Assembly (NCBI GenBank): GCA_041661425.1 | Contig: JBAZUI010000005.1 | Span: forward strand, 1-63,967 | Direction of reading: 5' to 3' | Origin: Patescibacteria group bacterium | GTDB lineage: Bacteria > Patescibacteriota > Patescibacteriia > UBA9934 | Length of the DNA: 63,967 bases | In this document: positions 293-63,675 of the stretch, piece by piece | Numbering within the stretch: the first letter of the stretch is position 1 | How the letters are laid out: each line of letters begins with the position of its first letter | The notes under the pieces: generated by a model | What the model saw: the letters and a program-made list of their open reading frames with translations, nothing else | Database searches by the model: none | What the model was told of the DNA's origin: nothing | Translations under genes and position numbers: made by a program

Positions 293-471
293 TGATGATG
301 TTTATTTCGTTCAAAATTACTGCATCTACAGGCTCACGATTTGCGTTCCTCGCTCGCCGTACATTTTGGTACGGCTCGCTCCGGTACGCATTGTTCGCCT
401 GTATCTACAGCAATTTTGGACGAAATAGATCCATCGACTGATTTTCTATCAGTGGTTTCTAATAAAATCAG

Positions 472-592
472 AGGACTTTCACCTTTAGATGCAGAGCGAG
501 GAGAAAACCGAGCAACGAGGAGCCGTACACAGACGTACGGTGACGACGTGCGCAGGTTTTCGACAAAGCTATGCGCTAAAGGTGGAAGTCCT
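472..592 (+). repeat. Structured intergenic repeat, family A, copy in the 23S-5S spacer
   Basis: Outer arms AGGACTTTCACCTTTA / TAAAGGTGGAAGTCCT are complementary. The conserved core TGCAGAGCGAGGAGAAAACCGAGCAACGAGGAGCC ... GGTGACGACGTGCGCAGGTTTTCGACAAAGCTATGCGC is shared with copies at 4665-4783, 51047-51170 and 61004-61156. Confidence 0.85.
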
Positions 593-608
593 AAAGAATC
601 GTTATATT

Positions 609-719
609 GTTCTGGTGGCATTTCCTGCAGGGCAACACCCGTTCCCATCCCGAACACGGCCGTTAAGCCTGCGGGGCCGATGGTAGTCCATTAGGGCGAG
701 AGTAGGTAGTCGCCAGAAC
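609..719 (+). rRNA. rrf: 5S rRNA
   Basis: CCCGTTCCCATCCCGAACACGG, GCCGATGGTAGT and GAGAGTAGG motifs are present. Helix I pairs GTTCTGGTG (609-617) with CGCCAGAAC (711-719). Confidence 0.92.
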
Positions 720-742
720 AATGCAACGATTTTTTGTAAGAA

Positions 743-769
743 GGACGTCTTTATGACGCCCTTTTTTTG
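743..769 (+). terminator. Hairpin plus T-run after the 5S gene
   Basis: GGACGTC..GACGCCC stem followed by TTTTTTT. Confidence 0.5.
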
Positions 770-805
770 TGATAAAATTTGGTTGTTCGTCAATTATCAT
801 TATTT

Positions 806-1855
806 ATGGGAAAAGTTGTTGGAGGGTTTGGAAAACATAATCCCGAAGGACAATCAGAGGAATCGTACGAGCGCGGAGTCGCACGAAAAAGCGTCATTCA
901 ATTTTTAGCGGAGAAACCCCCAGCAGTTTCGCATCGGCTATTTCAAATACTGATTGAAAGAGCCCAAGAGACGCCGGAAGAGGTTGAATTGACGGGATTT
1001 TACAATCGAGTCGTTGATTTTCAAAAATTGCTCGATGAAAAAACATTTGAAGGTTTCGTAAAAACAAAATCAAAGAAATTTAATGATAAAAAAGGAATTC
1101 TGGAAGAAATCGAGGGAGTAACGGATGTCACAAGACAAACCGCTGCAGAAAATTTGTTCCTGGCGTGGGAAAATCTCTATGATGCGCAAGTGCACATTCT
1201 CGATATGGAAGGCATTGATGAAAATCACCCAGAAAGGGAGAGAAAAATTCAAGAAGCAACAAAAAAATGGGATGATCGGACAAAAGTATTTCGAGAACAG
1301 ATCATGAATATCGAGCAAGAACTTCGTCCGGTTATTGCAGCGTATGATCGCTTGGATTGGCAGGTAAAAGATAAGGCGAAACAGTACGGTCTTGATGGTG
1401 CTTTCGAACGTCTAAAATCAAGAATCCCAAGTGCCAAACCAAATATGGAACGCTATGTTCGGGATGTCGAAAAGCTTTTTTCTGATATTGAGCGTCACGA
1501 AAATGAGGCTCGGGTCGCACTTCCTCAACCAACTGAACAGCCAGAAGAGGTTCCTCTCACGCCAGAACAAGAACAGAAGATCGTGGGAGAGGTTCGAAGA
1601 TTAATCACGCAGGGAAAAATTAAAACTCTGAATCGATATTGCGAAGTTAGCGAGGCGATTTTTTGGGAGAATGGGCAATCGATTACAACAGATAATTTTG
1701 AAGGAAATCCCGCAAAGCTCATGAAGGGAAAGACGCGACATGGGGATCATGTTCTTGAAGAGAAGAGTTTATCTCTTGGAAAACTTGTTGTTATCGGAAG
1801 GATTGAACATCCTCGCGATCCACCATTTTTTTATCTTGTTTGGAAGCGAGAGTAG
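806..1855 (+). CDS. Hypothetical E/K-rich protein; sole cargo of the insertion bracketed by 5S 3'-end repeats
   Basis: Long ORF. The first ATG is at 806 (the track ORF starts at TTG 779). The TAG stop (1853-1855) lies inside the second copy of the 5S-derived repeat. No recognisable catalytic motif. Confidence 0.7.
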   Translation: MGKVVGGFGKHNPEGQSEESYERGVARKSVIQFLAEKPPAVSHRLFQILIERAQETPEEVELTGFYNRVVDFQKLLDEKTFEGFVKTKSKKFNDKKGILEEIEGVTDVTRQTAAENLFLAWENLYDAQVHILDMEGIDENHPERERKIQEATKKWDDRTKVFREQIMNIEQELRPVIAAYDRLDWQVKDKAKQYGLDGAFERLKSRIPSAKPNMERYVRDVEKLFSDIERHENEARVALPQPTEQPEEVPLTPEQEQKIVGEVRRLITQGKIKTLNRYCEVSEAIFWENGQSITTDNFEGNPAKLMKGKTRHGDHVLEEKSLSLGKLVVIGRIEHPRDPPFFYLVWKRE

Positions 1856-4518: not shown

Positions 4519-4783
4519 CGAAGGACTTTTGTATTTGAGTGCAGAATGAGAAGAGGCAGAGGCTTTTCGCGAGACGAATACAAAACAAGGAGAAGCTTTA
4601 GATTTAGATGCAGCACGAGGAAAAAACCGAGCAACGAGGAGACGTGTGCAGATTTATTTTCGAAGGACTTTTGTATTTGAGTGCAGAACAAGGAGAAAAC
4701 CGAGTAGCAAGGAGCCGTACATAGATGTACGGTGACGAAGCACGGAGGTTTTCGACAAAGTTATGCGCCAAATACAGAAGTCC
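4519..4783 (+). repeat. Nested/tandem array of family A repeats (two truncated units plus one full unit at 4665-4783)
   Basis: CGAAGGACTTTTGTATTTGAGTGCAGAA occurs at 4519 and 4661 (142-bp period). A left-arm-only copy sits at ~4606-4645. Confidence 0.85.
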
Positions 4784-4794
4784 TTAAATAAAAA

Positions 4795-5608: not shown

Positions 5609-5613
5609 AGAAT

Positions 5614-5633
5614 TGGTGGACTTGAGGGGATTC
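5614..5633 (-). repeat. Orphan copy of the tRNA-Ala 3' end (T-loop to CCA)
   Basis: TGGTGGACTTGAGGGGATTC is identical to 5991-6010. Confidence 0.95.
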
Positions 5634-5990
5634 AGCTTCAGCTCTCGGCTTGCCGTCGCAAGCCTCGGCCCTGCCTACCGGCAGGCAGACTAGCCACCCG
5701 CCTTCGCAAGGCTTCGGCGGGCAGGCCGCCTACAATGGCGGAGTTTATCCACCGAAGCTCCGATTTATCCGTCGTAGCTTTAGCGAAGACGGAAGGAGCG
5801 AAGGAGGAGCGTTCGAATCCCTTCGCAAGCCAAATGGTTGACTTGCGTCTAATTTAATCAATAAATTTCCACGTATTTTGCTTCAGATACAAGGCATGGG
5901 TGGCAGTCGAGGAAACGTACCCAAATGTACGTTGACGAAAACTGACGGGACCCATAACACAGTAGCTTAACAAAATTCGTGGAAATTTCT
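5634..5990 (-). mobile_element. Insert between tRNA-Ala and its displaced 3' end: family B element (5634-5847) plus a family-A-like hairpin (5863-5988)
   Basis: The family B sequence is shared with 63358-63550 and 40810-40930. It abuts the tRNA fragment through the ...CCGAGAGCTGAAGC end (minus strand). Confidence 0.7.
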
Positions 5991-21403: not shown

Positions 21404-22276
21404 ATGAGCAGACCAATTCCTAAATTTAATATCCAAAAAGCATCCATTGCCATGATGTTTGCTTTGTTGTGTTTTATCCCTTTTGCTTTTGCGGCAACAA
21501 CGCACAATCTGTCGCTTTTTGTTGAGTTTACCGGTGAGAGCACAAATAGTAATTATGCGGGGCGGACGGTCGCCCCTGCCGGCGATGTAAACGGTGATGG
21601 TTACAAAGATTTCCTTATTGGAGCGTATGGCAATAATGATGGTGGCGCCAATACAGGTGCGGTGTATCTCATTTACGGTTCAGCAACACCGTTTACCAGC
21701 AGAAACCTTACAAATGACATAAAATTTTGGGGAGAAGCTGTTGGAGATTTGGTCGGCGAAACCTCTATTGCTTCTGCCGGGGACGTGAATGGTGACGGAT
21801 ACGATGATATTCTTATTGGCGCCTATAGAAATGATGATGCCGGAGCAGATGCCGGTGCCGCATATTTGATTTACGGCCAGGCGGCTACGCTTACCAGTGC
21901 TTCGCTTTCAACAGCAATCGAATTTACCGGTGAAGTCGCCGGAGATAAAGCCGGTTATTTCGTTGCCTCAGCAGGGGATGTGAACTTCGATACGTATGAT
22001 GACTTTTTGGTCGGCGCCTATATGAATGACGATGGCCCCGGTGACAATGGCGGTGCCGCCTATCTCATTTACGGTCAGGCTGATCCACTTGTGAGTGCAT
22101 CACTCTCAACCGCCGTGGAGTTTACCGGTGAAGTTGCCGGAGATAACGCTGGTACTAGTGTTTCTTCAGCTGGGGATGTAAATAACGACACATATAGCGA
22201 TATTCTCGTTGGTGCACAATCGAATGACGATGGCCCTGGTGACGATGGCGGCGCGGCTTATCTTATCTATGGCTAG
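21404..22276 (+). CDS. FG-GAP repeat surface protein, N-terminal part (signal peptide plus 4 repeats), ending at an in-frame TAG
   Basis: MSRPIPKFNIQKASIAMMFALLCFIPFAFA signal. Repeats of the form AGDVNGDGYDD..GAAYLIYGQA. The TAG at 22274-22276 replaces the CAG (Q) of the repeat consensus. Confidence 0.8.
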   Translation: MSRPIPKFNIQKASIAMMFALLCFIPFAFAATTHNLSLFVEFTGESTNSNYAGRTVAPAGDVNGDGYKDFLIGAYGNNDGGANTGAVYLIYGSATPFTSRNLTNDIKFWGEAVGDLVGETSIASAGDVNGDGYDDILIGAYRNDDAGADAGAAYLIYGQAATLTSASLSTAIEFTGEVAGDKAGYFVASAGDVNFDTYDDFLVGAYMNDDGPGDNGGAAYLIYGQADPLVSASLSTAVEFTGEVAGDNAGTSVSSAGDVNNDTYSDILVGAQSNDDGPGDDGGAAYLIYG

Positions 22277-22312
22277 GCCGCGCCACTCGTTAGTGCCTCG
22301 CTCTCAACGGCT

Positions 22313-25300
22313 GTGGAATTTACCGGTGAAGTTGCCGGAAACCAGGCCGGGTATTCTGTTTCTTCAGCCGGGGATGTGAATAACGATACTTACGATGACT
22401 TTTTAGTCGGAGCTTTCTTGAATAGTGACGGCGCGAGCATGGCCGGCGCTGTTTATTTAATTTACGGTCAGGCCGCTCCGCTTGTCGCCGCTTCACTTTC
22501 AACTGCGGTGGAGTTTACCGGTGAAGGTGTAATGGACTTTGCAGGCACCAGTGTTTCTTCAGCTGGGGATGTGAATAACGACACATATGATGATTTTCTC
22601 GTTAATGCAGCTTTTAACGATGATGGCCCGGGTAATGATGGAGGAGCGGCTTATCTCATTTACGGTCAGGCCGCGCCACTCGTTAGTGCTTCTCTTTCGA
22701 CCGCAGTTGAGTTCATCGGTGAAGCCGCTATTGATTATGCGGGCTACACGGTTGCCTCGGCCGGGGATGTGAATAACGACACTTATGATGATTTCCTGGT
22801 CGGCGCCTTTATGCATCATGGATATGGTGCCGATTCCGGTTCGGCTTATTTTATTTATGGTCAAGCTAGCGCACTCACGAGCGCGTCACTTTCAACCGCG
22901 GTTAATTTTGGTGGGGAAGCTTATGAGAATACCGCTGTGGCGTCTGATGACTCCGCGGGGAGTGACATTGGCAATGCTGGAGATGTGAACGGCGATGGGT
23001 ATGATGATTTCCTTGTAGTGGCAAATGCGAATGATGACGGTGGCAGCTCATCAGGATCGGCGTATCTTGTGTATGGTCAAGCTTCGCTTCTTGCGGGAAC
23101 ATCATTGTCAAATGCGGTTGAATATATCGGTGAAACGGTGTCGGATATGGTTAATCTTGCGAAAACAGCCGGAGACGTGAATGGTGATGGGTATGATGAT
23201 TTTCTCATCACAGCTTCTTTTAACGATAGCGGTGCTTCAAACGCCGGCGCCGTGTATCTTATTTACGGTCAGGCCGCACCATTGGCTGGTGGATCGCTAT
23301 CAAGTGTGGCAGTGAAATATACTGGGGAAGGTATTAACTACAAAGCCGGTGTCGCTCTTGCATACGGAGATATCAATGGCGATGAATATAGCGATTTTCT
23401 TATTGATGCCGCTTCAAGTAGTGATGGAAAAACCGTTGTTTATCTTGTGTATGGTCAAGCCGCACCATTGGCTGGTGGATCGCTATCAACGGCTGTTGCA
23501 TTAACCGGTGCGCCAGCGGGTGGCTATAATACTCCAGTTTCGGTCGGCGATGTAAACGGAGATGGGTATGATGATATTTTAATCGGAAATTATACTTTAA
23601 ACATTGCCTATCTTCTCTACGGTCAGGCCGCATCATTTGTGAGCGGATCCTATCTCGCATCATCCGTTCAGTTCACACCTGAGGTGAGTGGCGATTTGGC
23701 AGGAATGGACGTTGCGTTGGCGGATATCAACGGCGATGGATATCGCGACATGATTATTTCCGCCACACAAAATGACGATGGCGCAGTGAATGCCGGTGCG
23801 ATTTATCTGATTTATGGACAAGCCGCCGCACTTACAAACGCCTCTCTTTCGACTGCAATAGAATTTATGGGCATAAATGCCACAGCGTCCGGAGCCTCAA
23901 TTGGACTCGCTGATCATTGTGATGTTAATAACGATGGATACGACGATCTTTTTATTGGATTTAAAGATGACAATACCACCTATTACACTCTTGGTCAGGC
24001 AGCTCCCCTTGTTGGTGGATCGCTTTCAACATTCAATACATTCACGGGTGAAGTTGTTGGCGATAGTGCCGGTGATTCTGTCTCTTGTGCCGGTGATGTG
24101 AACGGCGACAATTATAATGAAATAATCATCGGTGCAACAGGAAATGATGATGCTGGATCCGGTGCCGGTGCCGCCTATCTTGGCTATCTCTACGTTGACT
24201 CCGATCACGATGGCATGCCGGGAACAGCCGGCATTCTCGACGGCAATGATTTTGACGATAATGACCCGAGCGTTCAGGATAGTTGGATTTCGAATTTGAG
24301 CGTTGGTGGTTCCTCGGATGGGTGGGGTGGAGTACTCATTCAATTTACCCTCGACGATCCAGACGATGATGATACCGATCAGGCAAGAATTCAATATAGC
24401 CTTGATAACGGCGCAACATGGGCAGATCCAACACTCAGCACATCAGATGCCGATACTACCGCAACCTATGGCGATCCGGATATTAATAATTCCGTTGCGT
24501 ATCAGGTTGGACAATCCGGTGCCTACATTACAACGTCTTCCGGAGCAAATACGATTCAGGTTCGATGGAATTCCGCGGTTGATGTTCCAACAGCGGCAAC
24601 ACAAACCGCAAAAATTCGCGTGACCCCTTATGACGGGACTTCAGAAGGAACCTCAGCAACAAGCTCAGCGTTTTCACTCAATAACCTCGAATCAAATCCC
24701 AGCGATTCCACTCCATCACAACCAAAGGTCACGCCGGAACTGACGGGCCTCGTCATCTCTCAAGGCAATGGCACTACGACCGGTACTCTCACCGAAGGGG
24801 AGTGGACAAGTGTTTCTTGGCTCACACTCGGCTCCGTTCCGTATGTGCTTGTTTCTTATTCAACAGATAATGGATCCACCTGGCAGACGCTTGTTGGTCC
24901 CATCGCAAATCGCAGTAATATCGCCTTTACCATGCCAAGTGATCTGGGTGACACCTTCATGCTCAAGGTTGAAGGAACTGATCTTGCTCTTGTTCTCGAT
25001 ACGCTCACGAGTGATCCAATTATCATCCTCGAACAGACAACCACCCCACCAACATCAACGACTCCGGTCGTAACTCCACCAGCCACGTACGTCCCAGTGG
25101 TTCCGGTTTATGCTCCCTCTCCCATTCTTGGTTACCAGTTCCCAACAACTCCAACGGATACAACATCGGCTACTCAAACTCCCGCAGAAACAGGCGATGA
25201 ACCATCTCCCATCCTTACCTATACCTCTCCCGAGGCCGCATCTCCCGTCACAGGTGAACAGGAAGAGGTGACTGAAGTCTTCCCTGGAGACTATATCAAG

Positions 25301-35134: not shown

Positions 35135-35645
35135 GTATTCAGGAAATGCGTAAGCCGAATTCTGTTCCAAATGCCGAAGCATTGGGGCGGTCATCTCTCT
35201 AGGGCGTCTCTTGCGAGACGTCTCATGCGAGCTACCTAATTTGCTCTTGCACCAAGGCAGGTTTGCCACCGCTCCATGTCGCCATGGAGGGAGACTGGTG
35301 GCTCCCGTCAGGGAACCTCCAATCACTTTTCACCTTTTGTTCTACGCAGTGGAACAATCCTGAGTACCGAGCTTGTCGAGGTATCGAAGGGTCACGTTGC
35401 ACCTCTCGACTCGCTTTGCTCGCTCGGGATCGTTTTACTGCGTAAAACTAGTATTGTCTCTGTGGCGCTATCTCTGGGTTTCGGGAAGGGACCGAGGAAC
35501 GGATAAATCCAGTTCCTTGAACTCTTCCTATGTCCCGGTTGCCGTTAGCAACGCCTTTTGATTTTCGATCTTGCGATCGAAAAGGTGTTCGGACTTTCCT
35601 CTTGGGATCCGAAGATTCCAAGTAACCACCACCATTTCCTGAATG
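35135..35645 (-). ncRNA. rnpB: RNase P RNA, bacterial type A, unusually long (~510 nt)
   Basis: On the minus strand: GAGGAAAGTCCGAACAC (P4 5'), GGTGCAAGAGCAAATTAGG, CTAGAGAGATGACCGCCC, and ACAGAATTCGGCTTAC (P4 3'). P1 pairs ATTCAGGAAATG with CATTTCCTGAAT. Confidence 0.9.
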
Positions 35646-35650
35646 CCGAA

Positions 35651-35679
35651 ATAATAGCAGAAAACAGCTGAATTGTCAA
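35651..35679 (-). promoter_or_regulatory. Sigma70-type promoter for rnpB
   Basis: Minus strand reads TTGACA-17 nt-TATTAT. The predicted start falls ~7 nt downstream, at the P1 5' end. Confidence 0.65.
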
Positions 35680-35680
35680 T

Positions 35681-36083
35681 AAAAAAATGCTCCAGGGCAA
35701 GGGGCCTTGGAGCAGACGAAAAGAGAAGAATGCGGTGCGTAGAACAAGAAAAAGATAGTGTAGAGGGTTTCGTGGTTTGGCATCCGCCACATGTCCGATA
35801 AGCCGGAGTGACTTCTCAACAGCTTATCCCAAAGCGGATTGGCCTCGGTGGTGGGTTCTCACGCTCTTCGCTATTGGACCTCTAACGAAGCATCCCACTT
35901 CTCACATCCCCCTCACCCTGAATGTGAGCTTGGTGCGTGAGTTTACCCCATGATCAAGAGGCTACCTGCAAAAGTAACACGTTCTTGATCACACAAGACA
36001 GGCGTAGAACTCGCCCCTGACATATTCGACCTCGCCACGACCACAGCTACGTCTTTTGTTCCTCTTCTCCTACGCACCGCAGT
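35681..36083 (-). ncRNA. Unassigned structured RNA candidate Y (~400 nt) with its own promoter and terminator
   Basis: A 12-bp closing helix TGCGGTGCGTAG / CTACGCACCGCA encloses ~330 nt of hairpin-rich, ORF-poor sequence. Terminator hairpin GCTCCAAGGCC..GGCCCTGGAGC plus T7 at 35681-35713. Confidence 0.5.
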
Positions 36084-36089
36084 GTGGTG

Positions 36090-36118
36090 AAAGTACAGGA
36101 AAATCCAACAAAAGTCAA
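36090..36118 (-). promoter_or_regulatory. Sigma70-type promoter for RNA candidate Y
   Basis: Minus strand reads TTGACT-17 nt-TACTTT, immediately after the preceding terminator. Confidence 0.55.
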
Positions 36119-36411
36119 TAAAAATAGAACCCCACTGGAGGAGGTTCCGGTGGGGAGAATAAAATTGTGCGGTGTCGTTTTTTGCCGGGTGAGTTTGGGG
36201 GGCGTTCCCGAGAGAGGGCGGATTGAAAGGCTAGATTCACTCATGAATCAGCCGATGCCTCAAGCTTTTTTCTGTGCTCAAACCCGTGAGGGGAGCAACA
36301 GATATTGTGCTTGAACTTCGTCTTTTAGACGAAGGCCTGTCGGCATTTATTTTTCAACTTCTCAATCCCGGGTGACGGGGAAGGGCCCAGTGCGAAAAGA
36401 CGTCACCGCGC
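36119..36411 (-). ncRNA. Unassigned structured RNA candidate X (~290 nt) with its own promoter and terminator
   Basis: ORF-poor. Nested helices include GGTGACG..CGTCACC, GCCGACAGG..GCATCGGC and CTTCGTCT-AAA-AGACGAAG. Terminator CCCCACCGG..CCAGTGGGG plus T-rich run at 36119-36155. Confidence 0.45.
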
Positions 36412-36417
36412 GAAAAA

Positions 36418-36446
36418 AGAGTATCCCTTTTTTATAAATTTGTCAA
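36418..36446 (-). promoter_or_regulatory. Sigma70-type promoter for RNA candidate X
   Basis: Minus strand reads TTGACA-17 nt-TACTCT. Confidence 0.5.
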
Positions 36447-36456
36447 GAGTTAGCCT

Positions 36457-36488
36457 AAAAAACGAAAAGCCACGGGTTTAGCCGTGGG
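36457..36488 (-). terminator. Terminator after the GC-rich small gene
   Basis: Minus strand reads CCACGG-CTAAAC-CCGTGG followed by CTTTTCGTTTTTT. Confidence 0.65.
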
Positions 36489-36523
36489 AGGAGGCGGTTA
36501 GGCTCGAGCGGAGGATTGTCCGT

Positions 36524-36913
36524 CTACGAAACGGAGATGTCCGCGGGCCAGAGTTGGGGGCGCCTCGCCTGAATGGGCGGGCGGGCCGTGGGGATGGGGG
36601 CGCGGTCGAGGCCGAGGCTCAACACCTCGGGCGGCAAGAACGCGTGGAGGTAGAAGGGGATTTTCCGGACAAAAGTCCGGTAGTGGTACTGCCACTCAGT
36701 CTCGTTGGTAGCAGTGAGATCGACGATCCACTGCGCGAGAGTGTGGAGCCAAATCACGTTTTCCGGGCTCCTCTCGACCATGGGCATGATCGAGGTGATC
36801 GCGCTCATGAGTGCCCTCTGGTGCTCATTCATGCAGGCCCGCACGATCTTGAGCCTCCGAGAAGAACGGTGATGCTGTCGACGACCCTTGATTTCGGACT
36901 GGTGAAGACTCAT
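36524..36913 (-). CDS. Hypothetical 129-aa protein in a visibly GC-richer islet
   Basis: ATG at 36913 is preceded by GGAGG ~8 nt upstream. Third codon positions are mostly G/C. Own terminator. No family recognised. Confidence 0.6.
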   Translation of the reverse strand: MSLHQSEIKGRRQHHRSSRRLKIVRACMNEHQRALMSAITSIMPMVERSPENVIWLHTLAQWIVDLTATNETEWQYHYRTFVRKIPFYLHAFLPPEVLSLGLDRAPIPTARPPIQARRPQLWPADISVS

Positions 36914-37038: not shown

Positions 37039-37536
37039 TTACTTGGCTGCGATTTGAATATCAGTATTGCGCCGGTAAGCCTGTTGAATAAGTTCTTCGA
37101 GGAATTGATTCTGGACATCTTCGTTGCTTGCGAAGAATTGATTAGAACGAAGAATCCGTGCTCGCAGATTATCTTTTTCGTTGTTGGTAAGATGCGCCCA
37201 TTCAAGATGGTCTTGGAGATTTGATATTGACTGTTTTATTCGTTCCTCAGCAAGCTCCTTTTGCACACCCTTTTCTAGATTGGGGATGCTCTTTTGATAG
37301 GCCTGAATGACCTCGGGACCATATTCCCAGGCGGTTTGCGCGATGTCGCGATGAAGGCGTTTTTTTATTGAATCGTGTCCCGTGGCATGTGTTTCCTCAA
37401 GGATGACATGTGAGACGAATCGGATAAGTTCGTTTTTTCGATCTTCGGAAAAGAAATTCTCAAGAGAGATTTGTTTTTGATTATTTTCCTGATTTGCCGG
37501 TTTTTCCGGTTGCGGGAATCGTTCGAAGACGTTCAT
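37039..37536 (-). CDS. Hypothetical protein
   Basis: 165-aa ORF starting 4 nt after the trpS stop. Confidence 0.6.
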   Translation of the reverse strand: MNVFERFPQPEKPANQENNQKQISLENFFSEDRKNELIRFVSHVILEETHATGHDSIKKRLHRDIAQTAWEYGPEVIQAYQKSIPNLEKGVQKELAEERIKQSISNLQDHLEWAHLTNNEKDNLRARILRSNQFFASNEDVQNQFLEELIQQAYRRNTDIQIAAK

Positions 37537-40577: not shown

Positions 40578-40788
40578 GGTGCCGGGCAGGATGGCTGTAT
40601 CATTCTTCGTTCCGACTGACGAGGTAGGCTTGAATGGCCTGTTCGCGTCCTCCTACGCTCCTCAGCATTACCTCGGAGCTTCGGAGGACAGCCGTAGCTT
40701 CAGCCGACAAGCAGGGTGGCTTGCCAGCCGTTTTATCCACCGTAACTCTAGTGAAGGTGGAAGCTTCAGCGATAGCTGAAGCGAAGGC
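40578..40788 (-). repeat. Family C tRNA-trailer element (copy 3), following the displaced tRNA-Leu 3' fragment
   Basis: Minus strand begins GCCTTCGCTTCAGCTATCGCTGAAGCTTCCACCTTCACTAGAGTTACGGTGGATAAAACGG..., near-identical to 51257-51470. Confidence 0.85.
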
Positions 40789-40809
40789 TGGTGGGCGGAG
40801 AGGGACTCG
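40789..40809 (-). repeat. Orphan copy of the tRNA-Leu(CAG) 3' end (T-loop to CCA)
   Basis: TGGTGGGCGGAGAGGGACTCG is identical to 40936-40956. Confidence 0.95.
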
Positions 40810-40935
40810 GCCTCGACTCTCGGCTTGCCGTCGCAAGCCTCGGTCTGGCCACCGCCTCGCCATTCTGCCTGCTGGCAGAATATGGCTCCGGCGTTCGAGT
40901 CCATTAACAAGCCAAATGGTTGGCTTGTCGACCCT
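40810..40935 (-). mobile_element. Short family B element inserted between tRNA-Leu(CAG) and its displaced 3' end
   Basis: Shares CTCGGCTTGCCGTCGCAAGCCTCGG and GTTCGAGTCC..ACAAGCCAAATGGTTGGCTTGT with the B copies at 5634 and 63358. Confidence 0.7.
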
Positions 40936-41021
40936 TGGTGGGCGGAGAGGGACTCGAACCCTCAAGAGATTACTCTCACAAGCTTCTGAAACTTGCGTGT
41001 CTACCGTTTCACCATCCGCCC
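40936..41021 (-). tRNA. tRNA-Leu (anticodon CAG), long variable arm, CCA encoded
   Basis: Manual fold: acceptor GGGCGGA.., anticodon arm CAAGT-TTCAGAA-GCTTG, T-arm GAGGG-TTCGAGT-CCCTC. Confidence 0.9.
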
Positions 41022-50202: not shown

Positions 50203-50365
50203 GCCTTCGCTTCAGCTATCGCTGAAGCTACGGCTGGCAGGCCATCCTGCCTTCCACCTTCACTAAAGTTACGGTGGATAAAACGGCTGGCAGGCCACCC
50301 TGTCAGCTGAAGCGAAGGCTGTCCTCCGAAGCTCCGAGGCAATGCCGAGGAGCGTAGGAGGACAT
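50203..50365 (+). repeat. Family C tRNA-trailer element (copy 1), starting at the nucleotide after CCA
   Basis: GCCTTCGCTTCAGCTATCGCTGAAGC...CCACCTTCACTAAAGTTACGGTGGATAAAACGG...GCTGAAGCGAAGGCTGTCCTCCGAAGCTCCGAGGC...GGAGGAC. Confidence 0.85.
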
Positions 50366-50416
50366 GAACTGAATTAGTTATTGCCGAAGTTTCCGCTTTT
50401 CATCGATACCGCTTCT

Positions 50417-51046: not shown

Positions 51047-51170
51047 GAGAACTTTTCCTTTTGGATGCAGAACAAGGAAGAACCAAGGCTTTTTGTGAGA
51101 CGTACCCAAATGTACGTTGAACAAAAAACGAAGGTTCTGACGAAGCTATGCGCCAAAAGGAGAAGTTCTC
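51047..51170 (+). repeat. Family A structured repeat (variant core), between the membrane-protein gene and tRNA-Val
   Basis: Outer arms GAGAACTTTTCCTTTTGG / CCAAAAGGAGAAGTTCTC. Core GATGCAGAACAAGG...ACGTACCCAAATGTACGT...GACGAAGCTATGCGCC. Confidence 0.8.
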
Positions 51171-51256: not shown

Positions 51257-51490
51257 GCCTTCGCTTCAGCTATCGCTGAAGCTTCCACCTTCACTAGAGT
51301 TACGGTGGATAAAACGGCTGGCAAGCCATCCTGCTTGTCGGCTGAAGCGAAGGCTGTCCTCCGAAGCTCCGAGGCAACGCCGAGGAGCGTAGGAGGACGC
51401 GAATAGGCCATCAAGTCTGCCATCTCGTCAGTCGGAACGAAGGATGCCCTCCGAAGCCCCGTTTACAGCGGGGCGAAGGAGGGCAGGATT
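51257..51490 (+). repeat. Family C tRNA-trailer element (copy 2), starting at the nucleotide after CCA
   Basis: Same sequence family as 50203-50365 and 40578-40788, with an extended 3' part (CTCGTCAGTCGGAACGAAGGATG...). Confidence 0.85.
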
Positions 51491-63166: not shown

Positions 63167-63336
63167 CCGCCTGCACAAGGGCGGAGTTTATCCACCGAAG
63201 CTCCGATTTATCCGTCGTAGCTTTAGTGAAGACGGAAGGAGCGAAGGAGGAGCGTTCGAATCCCACGCAAGCCAAATTGTTGGCTTGCTATGAAATACCA
63301 ACCCACAAGGTTCCAATGATTTGAAACATTCTGGGT
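63167..63336 (-). mobile_element. Older, 5'-truncated tandem copy of the family B element plus spacer
   Basis: Near-identical to 63429-63598 (262-bp period). Confidence 0.75.
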
Positions 63337-63357
63337 TGGTGGACGCCAAGGGATTCG
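63337..63357 (-). repeat. Orphan copy of the tRNA-Val(TAC) 3' end (T-loop to CCA)
   Basis: TGGTGGACGCCAAGGGATTCG is identical to 63599-63619. Confidence 0.95.
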
Positions 63358-63598
63358 GCTTCAGCTCTCGGCTTGCCGTCGCAAGCCTCGGCTTAGCCAC
63401 CCGCCTTCGCAAGGCTTCGGCGGGCAGGCCGCCTGCACAAGGGCGGAGTTTATCCACCGAAGCTCCGATTTATCCGTCGTAGCTTTAGCGAAGACGGAAG
63501 GAGCGAAGGAGGAGCGTTCGAATCCCACGCAAGCCAAATTGTTGGCTTGCTATGAAATACCAACCCACAAAGTTCCAATGATTTGAAACATTCTGGGT
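63358..63598 (-). mobile_element. Family B element (63358-63550) plus spacer, inserted between tRNA-Val(TAC) and its displaced 3' end
   Basis: Shares almost its whole length with 5634-5847. Confidence 0.75.
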
Positions 63599-63675
63599 TG
63601 GTGGACGCCAAGGGATTCGAACCCCTGACCTTCTCGGTGTAAACGAGACGCTCTAACCAGCTGAGCTAGGCGTCC
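63599..63675 (-). tRNA. tRNA-Val (anticodon TAC), CCA encoded
   Basis: Manual fold: acceptor GGACGCC/GGCGTCC, anticodon arm TCTCG-TTTACAC-CGAGA, T-arm AGGGG-TTCGAAT-CCCTT. Confidence 0.93.

Follow-up and report, generated by a model that had tools for sequence, protein, structure and literature searches.

The 63,967 nt contig JBAZUI010000005.1 of a Patescibacteria group bacterium, referred to here over its whole length as the window, carries a stretch of about 400 nt on its minus strand, directly upstream of the RNase P RNA gene rnpB (nt 35681–36083, read from the sequence), that is designated Y in the current study. As a sequence Y is real, and that it is an RNA gene is plausible; it belongs to no described family and is a singleton. 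The chance that it is a genuine, expressed non-coding RNA (ncRNA) gene, and a diverged tandem paralogue of the structured RNA candidate immediately upstream of it (designated X), is judged from the sequence evidence to be about even, while any specific functional reading of Y is doubtful. Beyond X and rnpB, its neighbours are two small open reading frames (ORFs) without Pfam matches and the genes for TrpRS, RNase J and glycosyltransferases.

The signals that delimit Y were described in a first-pass annotation, and all of them are borne out, with small corrections. A promoter-like site with the sequence TTGACT-17-TACTTT is present in the position given there (Table 1), although its –10 box matches TATAAT at only 3 of 6 positions and a consensus promoter scan left it unlisted. 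Promoters of stable RNAs elsewhere in the window share the form TTGACn-17-TAnnnT, for example that of tRNA-Ala, with TACGAT. Nine bases past the –10 box begins the strand TGCGGTGCGTAG (nt 36081–36070), which pairs perfectly over 12 bp with CTACGCACCGCA (nt 35742–35731), as had been reported. An inverted-repeat search extended these strands to arms of 19 nt that are 89% complementary and 313 nt apart. In the predicted minimum free energy (MFE) fold of this one sequence, a 14-pair terminal helix continues via small bulges into a rod of about 45 bp (nt 36081–36019 with 35795–35731), and the rod closes a five-branch junction of two simple hairpins, a long hairpin, a three-way domain and the GAUAAGC/GCUUAUC hairpin. 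The local helices noticed earlier were recovered as well, TGATCAAGA/TCTTGATCA by the inverted-repeat search, and CUCACAU/AUGUGAG and GAUAAGC/GCUUAUC in the MFE fold. The unit ends in an intrinsic terminator, initially described as an 11-bp hairpin plus T7; the hairpin and its seven U are there, but the stem has 10 pairs and one mismatch instead of 11 bp. The U-tract runs into the promoter of rnpB, which had been placed directly after Y and does lie there (TTGACA-17-TATTAT, 11 of 12 matches); Y is separate from rnpB, which has a conserved promoter of its own. Y was said to contain no credible ORF, and none was found, either under code 11 or when stop codons were reassigned one at a time; such open frames as are present run across the promoter and terminator boundaries.

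The case for a relationship with X centres on the ends of the two RNAs. X and Y have in common their outermost six base pairs (GCGGUG/CACCGC), followed by an A. In X, in its orthologue in the nearest relative (locus L082, see below) and in Y, GCGGUG lies 8–9 nt past a TACnnT –10 box (TACTCT, TACCGT and TACTTT, respectively, as against TATTAT in rnpB), and each unit ends with (C/U)ACCGC-A, then a U/C-rich tail, a terminator and the junction sequence TTTTTATTGAC. The combination of the clamp, the following A and the distance from TACnnT may serve provisionally to define an X-type RNA, and all three sequences show it. By our estimate, chance would make the outer six base pairs identical, in matching positions, in roughly 1 of 1000 cases. 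When GCGGTG...CACCGC was searched for over all loci collected in this study, many chance matches were returned from coding DNA, with promoter context only at X and Y. Both RNAs consist of a rod closing a multi-branch interior and occupy the same strand of the same tandem array; they differ in that Y is about 100 nt longer than the X of the window, and in that X has an orthologue in the nearest relative while Y does not. Outside the short terminal elements no similarity between X and Y was detected by nhmmer, BLAST or MAFFT. Such divergence does not exclude paralogy, because X and its true orthologue in the nearest relative also align only at the termini and terminator, that is, the interiors of X-type RNAs change too fast. 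The 26-nt terminator hairpin of X is 100% conserved in that relative and the interior is unalignable. Since the terminators of the two X sequences are identical and that of Y is different, Y is more diverged from X than the orthologue is. The loop of the X terminator shows ACCUCCUCC, which is anti-Shine-Dalgarno-like.

The surroundings of Y are otherwise well conserved. The gene order RNase J – TrpRS – small hypothetical gene – rnpB – Bac_transf sugar transferase – GT4 glycosyltransferases is kept in every relative fetched, and the linkage of rnpB to the sugar transferase gene was seen in about 70 of 80 JGI metagenome loci. TrpRS, encoded 1.4 kb upstream of Y, has its closest proteins in organisms named Candidatus Uhrbacteria or Patescibacteria. 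The nearest relative found among 5.8 billion proteins has a TrpRS 78% identical to that of the window and is represented by contigs L082, L083, L084 and L093 (sources of the L082 organism: ERZ27249449 k141_1316775 and Ga0172379_10000509). There, the X orthologue is followed at once by the rnpB promoter, and Y is absent from the junction. A three-way alignment shows that the left half of this junction equals the left half of the X-to-Y junction of the window (ATTTTTATTGACTTTT, 16 of 16 positions), and its right half equals the right half of the Y-to-rnpB junction (TTTTCTGCTATTATT onwards), which is identical to the rnpB promoter of L082. Y is thus bracketed by two copies of the rnpB promoter region. 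This arrangement would fit equally well a tandem duplication in the lineage of the window or a deletion between direct repeats in that of L082, and under either history Y is dispensable for a close relative. It also makes the promoter of Y weaker evidence than it appears, since its –35 half is nothing but the left part of the duplicated region. What was annotated as Y's own promoter is a plausible sigma-70-type site in the right orientation, but one half of it has its counterpart at rnpB.

The duplicated promoter region could also be taken to mean that Y is a decayed tandem duplicate of rnpB itself, either an RNase P RNA pseudogene or a neo-functionalised paralogue. By eye, short strings resembling E. 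coli M1 RNA occur in Y in the same order as in M1 (AGGGUGA, AGGCCAA, GGGAUAAGCUGUUGAG and CCGGCUUAUCGG), the last of them in a match of 14 of 15 positions between CCGGCUUAUCGGACA of Y and CCGGCUUAUCGGUCA of M1. Such a duplicate is nevertheless very unlikely, and covariance models largely refute it, as no RNase P or MRP model matched Y alone at E ≤ 10. A profile of eight Uhrbacteria-type rnpB genes found nothing in Y, and the local alignment of Y with M1 was no better than that of shuffled sequences (9 of 500 as high under one scoring scheme, 60 of 300 under another), in a comparison of low power, since the genuine rnpB is also non-significant against M1. According to the MFE helix list, the M1-like segment (CCGGCUUAUC, GGCUUAUC) pairs locally with GAUAAGC and has no CR-I/P4 partner, and the –10 box of Y is of the X type (TAC), not the rnpB type (TAT). 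Nor is Y a type A RNase P RNA in its own right: it gave no match to RF00010 at E ≤ 10, does not contain the CR-I sequence GGAAAGUCC, and shows no P4 pairing, which CR-I forms with CR-V (GGCUUA). The rnpB of the window is long for type A (508 nt, compared with 367 positions in the model), and in one relative (L113, nt ~780–1601) the 5′ end of rnpB apparently lies about 300 nt ahead of the conserved GGAAAGUCC, which suggests a large P3 insertion.

The folding energy of Y was compared with that of randomised sequence. The 410-nt unit has an MFE of –161.6 kcal/mol, versus –130.9 ± 6.3 kcal/mol for dinucleotide shuffles (z = –4.87; none of 100 shuffles reached this stability), and perfect inverted repeats of at least 12 bp appeared in 4 of 300 shuffles (1.3%) of the surrounding 821-nt region. 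It is very improbable that a chance mix of promoter-like, terminator-like and palindromic sequence in an ordinary spacer accounts for Y. The singleton status, the poor –10 box and that 1.3% would be compatible with it, but the z-score speaks against it, the helix arms sit exactly between promoter and terminator, and the same ordered architecture recurs in X and in RNAs of three further relatives (L085, L089 and L171, see below). The stability of the fold cannot by itself be taken as proof of RNA function, because strongly negative z-scores are not special in this genome, several other intergenic regions beside tRNA and rRNA genes scoring –4 to –14. The sense strand of Y folds better than the antisense strand (–144.5 versus –120.4 kcal/mol, with 13 G·U pairs); this is a weak test and does not discriminate, because the genuine rnpB shows the opposite. 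Duplexes of Y with X, rnpB, 5S or the 23S 3′ end had energies no better than those of shuffled sequences.

Known RNA families were assessed with the 4227 covariance models of Rfam 15, which include tmRNA (transfer-messenger RNA), signal recognition particle (SRP) RNA, 6S RNA, RNase P RNA types A and B, ROOL, GOLLD, HEARO, raiA, OLE, Y RNA and group I and II introns. At the gathering threshold over the whole window nothing matched nt 35681–36083; at E ≤ 10 the sole match over nt 35500–36600 was to the terminator (ncS16, 20 bits, with 48 needed), and there were none to Y alone. The survey of all Rfam families that the first-pass annotation had proposed, naming ROOL, GOLLD, HEARO and raiA among others, was thus negative at both thresholds. 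Its authoring reader had been unable to fit Y to tmRNA, SRP RNA or 6S RNA, and these exclusions hold. ARAGORN found no tmRNA in the window, and the 3′ strand of Y, CUACGCACCGCA, is followed by UUC with no adjoining T-arm, no G3:U70 pair and no CCA. In 6S RNA two helical arms flank a large central bubble within about 180–200 nt; the body of Y is about 350 nt, with small internal loops and a five-way junction, and neither RF00013 nor a related model matched. Neither the small nor the large bacterial SRP models matched at E ≤ 10. Retron ncRNA, omega/reRNA and bridge RNA were set aside, as the neighbours of Y include no reverse transcriptase, TnpB/IscB or IS110 recombinase gene. An extremely divergent housekeeping RNA of the tmRNA, SRP or 6S kind, missed by the models in bacteria of the candidate phyla radiation (CPR), is scarcely credible. 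The length of about 350 nt and the rod with a branched head are loosely tmRNA-like, a closing stem is typical of 6S and 4.5S RNA too, and the Rfam scan found no tmRNA, SRP RNA or 6S RNA gene in the window; against this stand the negative searches, the missing tmRNA hallmarks and the rod without a large central bubble, and such an RNA would not be missing from the syntenic site of the closest relative or unalignable over some 90 related loci.

Homologues were sought in 172 loci, of which Uhrbacteria-like genomes or metagenomes supplied about 90. The loci came from a TrpRS scan of GTDB genomes, a TrpRS search of 5.8 billion proteins and the corresponding contigs, and a sugar-transferase scan of JGI metagenomes (80 loci). 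No homologue of Y was found in these loci by nhmmer, nor in phages, plasmids or IMG/VR, in a search confined to protein-anchored fetches and exact-pattern scans, and no second copy of Y occurs in the 64-kb window or in the fetched loci. The first-pass annotation had held that its proposal would fall if there were no homologues with covariation, and in the sense that none was found the result goes against it. In nhmmer searches of the loci with Y, X, the L082 X and the RNAs of L085 and L089, only X and its L082 orthologue matched each other, so that one sequence of Y and two of X are at hand. The sequence of the window recurs identically in a Logan contig from SRR18595301. Literature searches returned nothing relevant on ncRNAs near rnpB in CPR bacteria or Patescibacteria. 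A 160-aa ORF near Y found only itself in a protein search; by BLASTP it is weakly related to a 141-aa ORF that precedes X in contig L083.

The most serious alternative, possible though unlikely in our judgement, is that Y is a selfish or neutral insertion of structured DNA (palindromic, MITE-like in the sense of a miniature inverted-repeat transposable element, or a by-product of local duplication) that is transcribed only because it lies behind a copy of the rnpB promoter, and that has no RNA function. Its absence from the same junction in the nearest relative and its long terminal inverted repeats would both be expected of such an insertion. Compared with L082, the genome of the window has gained other structured elements beside stable-RNA genes, one being about 300 nt of structured, repeated sequence after tRNA-Leu-CAG that contains a 21-nt duplicate of the tRNA 3′ end, and high fold z-scores are common in such regions. 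A 165-aa ORF between TrpRS and the hypothetical gene (nt 37039–37536, minus strand) is an ORFan, its only match among 5.8 billion proteins being itself, and the closest relative lacks it; the 2 kb that contain Y have thus seen another gain specific to this lineage. The position upstream of rnpB is, moreover, empty in most relatives. Families of repeats beside tRNA and rRNA genes (described next) show that structured DNA accumulates there, and so keep this explanation alive. It is opposed by the lack of a second copy in the window or at any locus, by inverted repeats that are not directly flanked by a target-site duplication, by the correctly placed tail and good terminator, and by a clamp held in common with X, which is itself conserved across two species; the better folding of the sense strand points the same way, weakly, as the genuine rnpB fails that test.

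Structured elements of 150–370 nt occur downstream of the minus-strand genes for tRNA-Ala, tRNA-Leu-CAG and tRNA-Val-TAC (nt 5613–5990, 40640–40935 and 63167–63619). They end in a 21-nt duplicate of the tRNA 3′ end (e.g. nt 40789–40809, identical to 40936–40956), which looks like the att-site footprint of a small integrating element, and the one after tRNA-Leu is absent from L082. Copies, 86–94% identical, of a structured repeat of about 170 nt (GCCUUCGCUUCAGCUAUCGCUGAAGCU...GUCCUCC...GGAGGAC) lie at nt 50203–50368, 51257–51403 and 40640–40790, right after tRNA-Ile-TAT and tRNA-Val-GAC and behind the tRNA-Leu-linked element. Another, of about 125 nt and closed by AGGACUUU...GAAGUCCU (nt 472–595, 4519–4787 and 51048–51169), lies in the unusually long (319 nt) and extremely structured 23S–5S spacer (z about –14), twice in tandem at 4.5–4.8 kb, and upstream of tRNA-Val-GAC. 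By sequence, X and Y are not members of these families. Elsewhere in the window, a 1123-aa ORF (nt 21560–24180, plus strand) contains a tandem array of at least 13 coding repeats, each about 198 nt long and bearing the FG-GAP/VCBS-like motif GDVNGDGYDD.

In relatives other than the nearest one, fewer than 200 nt usually separate the hypothetical gene from rnpB. The exceptions found at this slot are rod-closed RNAs with their own promoter and terminator in L085 (TrpRS 69% identical), L089 and L171, and a long hairpin in L111 (Table 1). A tail followed by a terminator comes after the closing helix in Y, X, the L082 X and the RNAs of L089 and L171. The four slot RNAs of L085, L089, L171 and L111 gave no Rfam match where checked and have no similarity to X, Y or one another that nhmmer detected, and a search of five slot RNAs for k-mers with mismatches found no common motif above shuffled controls. 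They could be orthologues of a single RNA that have diverged extremely, or they could have arrived independently.

Table 1. Features of the Y region in the window, and corresponding RNAs in relatives (coordinates of relatives refer to the fetched loci).
Feature	Position (nt)	Strand	Details	Basis
Y promoter-like site	36090–36118	–	TTGACT 36118–36113, 17-nt spacer, TACTTT 36095–36090	direct reading
Y terminal helix, 5′ arm	36063–36081	–	UGCGGUGCGUAG; outermost 12 bp perfect	inverted-repeat search, MFE fold
Y terminal helix, 3′ arm	35731–35749	–	ends in CUACGCACCGCA	inverted-repeat search, MFE fold
Y body, remainder	35797–36062	–	inner rod 5′ side (to 36019) and five-branch interior	single-sequence MFE and centroid folds agree
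Y inner rod, 3′ partner strand	35750–35795	–	lies outside the span 35797–36062	MFE fold
Y interior branches	36016–36000; 35992–35950; 35948–35853; 35848–35829; 35828–35797	–	hairpin; hairpin; three-way domain; hairpin; hairpin	predicted
Y 3′ tail	35715–35730	–	UUCUUCUCUUUUCGUC; 16 nt, U/C-rich, single-stranded	sequence and fold
Y intrinsic terminator	35681–35714	–	stem-loop 35714–35688, 10 pairs and one A·C mismatch; seven U 35687–35681	inverted-repeat search, MFE fold
rnpB promoter	35651–35679	–	TG-extended; second copy of the duplicated promoter region flanking Y	consensus scan
rnpB, RNase P RNA type A	35135–35642	–	downstream of Y	RF00010, 156.9 bits, E = 1.2e-48
X, structured RNA, putative paralogue of Y	36120–36446	–	upstream of Y	fold z –5.5; no Rfam match
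X promoter	36446–36418	–	TTGACA 36446–36441, 17-nt spacer, TACTCT 36423–36418	sequence
X clamp	36409–36404; 36174–36169	–	GCGGUG pairs with CACCGC	sequence
X terminator	36148–36126	–		sequence
X orthologue, L082	11543–11915		only termini and terminator conserved
Slot RNA, L085	11812–12218		about 370 nt	z –6.8
Slot RNA, L089	5195–4825	–	about 350 nt
Slot RNA, L171	~320–510		146-nt rod
Slot hairpin, L111	~680–880		about 220 nt

Several observations weigh against regarding Y as an RNA gene related to X. Its absence from the nearest relative weakens the claim of a stable RNA, and its –10 box is weak. No homologue that could reveal covariation or purifying selection in the interior was found in the loci and collections searched. 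Intergenic DNA of this genome often has very negative fold z-scores, also in repeated and probably selfish elements. The similarity of X and Y ends with the terminal elements, and the shared clamp of 6 bp is a short match. The degree of divergence of Y would require either an old duplication followed by loss in L082, or accelerated change in Y. Finally, no motif beyond chance links the five slot RNAs. The statement in the first-pass annotation that Y is an independently transcribed stable RNA is not upheld in that form, having been drawn from a single sequence for which no homologue was found and which the nearest relative does not have at this site.

If Y is an RNA gene and a paralogue of X, it would be a lineage-specific ncRNA gene, placed second in an array of three minus-strand units that follow one another head to tail (X – Y – rnpB). 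Every unit would have a sigma-70-type promoter, and the U-tract of its intrinsic terminator would adjoin the –35 box that follows. The array may have arisen by a tandem duplication extending from the –10 box of X through the –35 box of rnpB, which would have produced a hybrid promoter for Y (rnpB-type –35, X-type –10) together with X-type ends. From this promoter Y would be made as a stable RNA, the predicted transcript being about 400 nt (about 350 nt without the terminator) and starting a few nt before the 12-bp terminal helix. The terminal duplex of X-type RNAs could be a functional handle, because it is the sole part conserved between the X orthologues and common to Y: possibly a duplex for processing or protection (a substrate of RNase III type) or a protein-binding site. 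With 19 quasi-continuous bp extending to about 45, the duplex of Y resembles substrates of RNase III type. The hypervariability of the interior speaks against a core conserved for catalysis or ligand binding, and would be more in keeping with a decoy, scaffold or regulatory RNA that evolves fast and whose loss does no harm. It is suggested, very tentatively, that X and Y, and perhaps the RNAs of L085, L089 and L171, are founders of a new class of large, clamp-closed ncRNAs found in tandem with rnpB in Uhrbacteria-like CPR bacteria. It is an equally speculative part of this suggestion that only the terminal duplex is constrained, as a protein or RNase handle, and that the interior turns over quickly, as in an antagonistic or host-interaction RNA.

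CPR bacteria have tiny genomes of about 1 Mb, with little DNA to spare. If both X and Y are genes, one lineage spends about 700 nt beside its RNase P RNA gene on two large structured RNAs of no described family. They would add an RNA class to a group in which ncRNA biology is essentially uncharted, and would show that the interior of an RNA gene family can evolve too fast for alignment. Should Y be non-functional, the locus documents the gain or loss of structured, promoter-flanked cassettes beside stable-RNA genes. Either way, fold stability and promoter and terminator signals cannot alone validate an RNA gene in this genome.

Among known systems, Y is comparable to ROOL, GOLLD, OLE, raiA and HEARO in being long, highly structured and non-coding, and in adjoining stable-RNA genes. 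ROOL and GOLLD frequently occur close to tRNA genes and in a mobile setting. Those families are widely conserved with covariation, whereas Y is a singleton and matches none of their Rfam models. With the type A RNase P RNA encoded next to it, Y has in common the duplicated promoter region and a closing helix formed between the 5′ and 3′ ends. A terminal helix that alone is conserved, paired ends, and an own promoter and terminator (in X and Y) recall 6S RNA and the Ro-associated Y RNAs, but the element described here is at least twice their size, has a multi-branched interior and a rod without a central bubble, and is unmatched by the Rfam 6S, Y_RNA and YrlA models. The resemblance to MITEs lies in the length of 350–400 bp, the 19-nt terminal inverted repeats at 89% (12 bp perfect) and the presence or absence between close relatives; unlike MITEs, Y has repeats without a target-site duplication and no second copy in 64 kb, and the repeat that flanks it is instead a duplication of about 30–45 nt of the rnpB promoter region.

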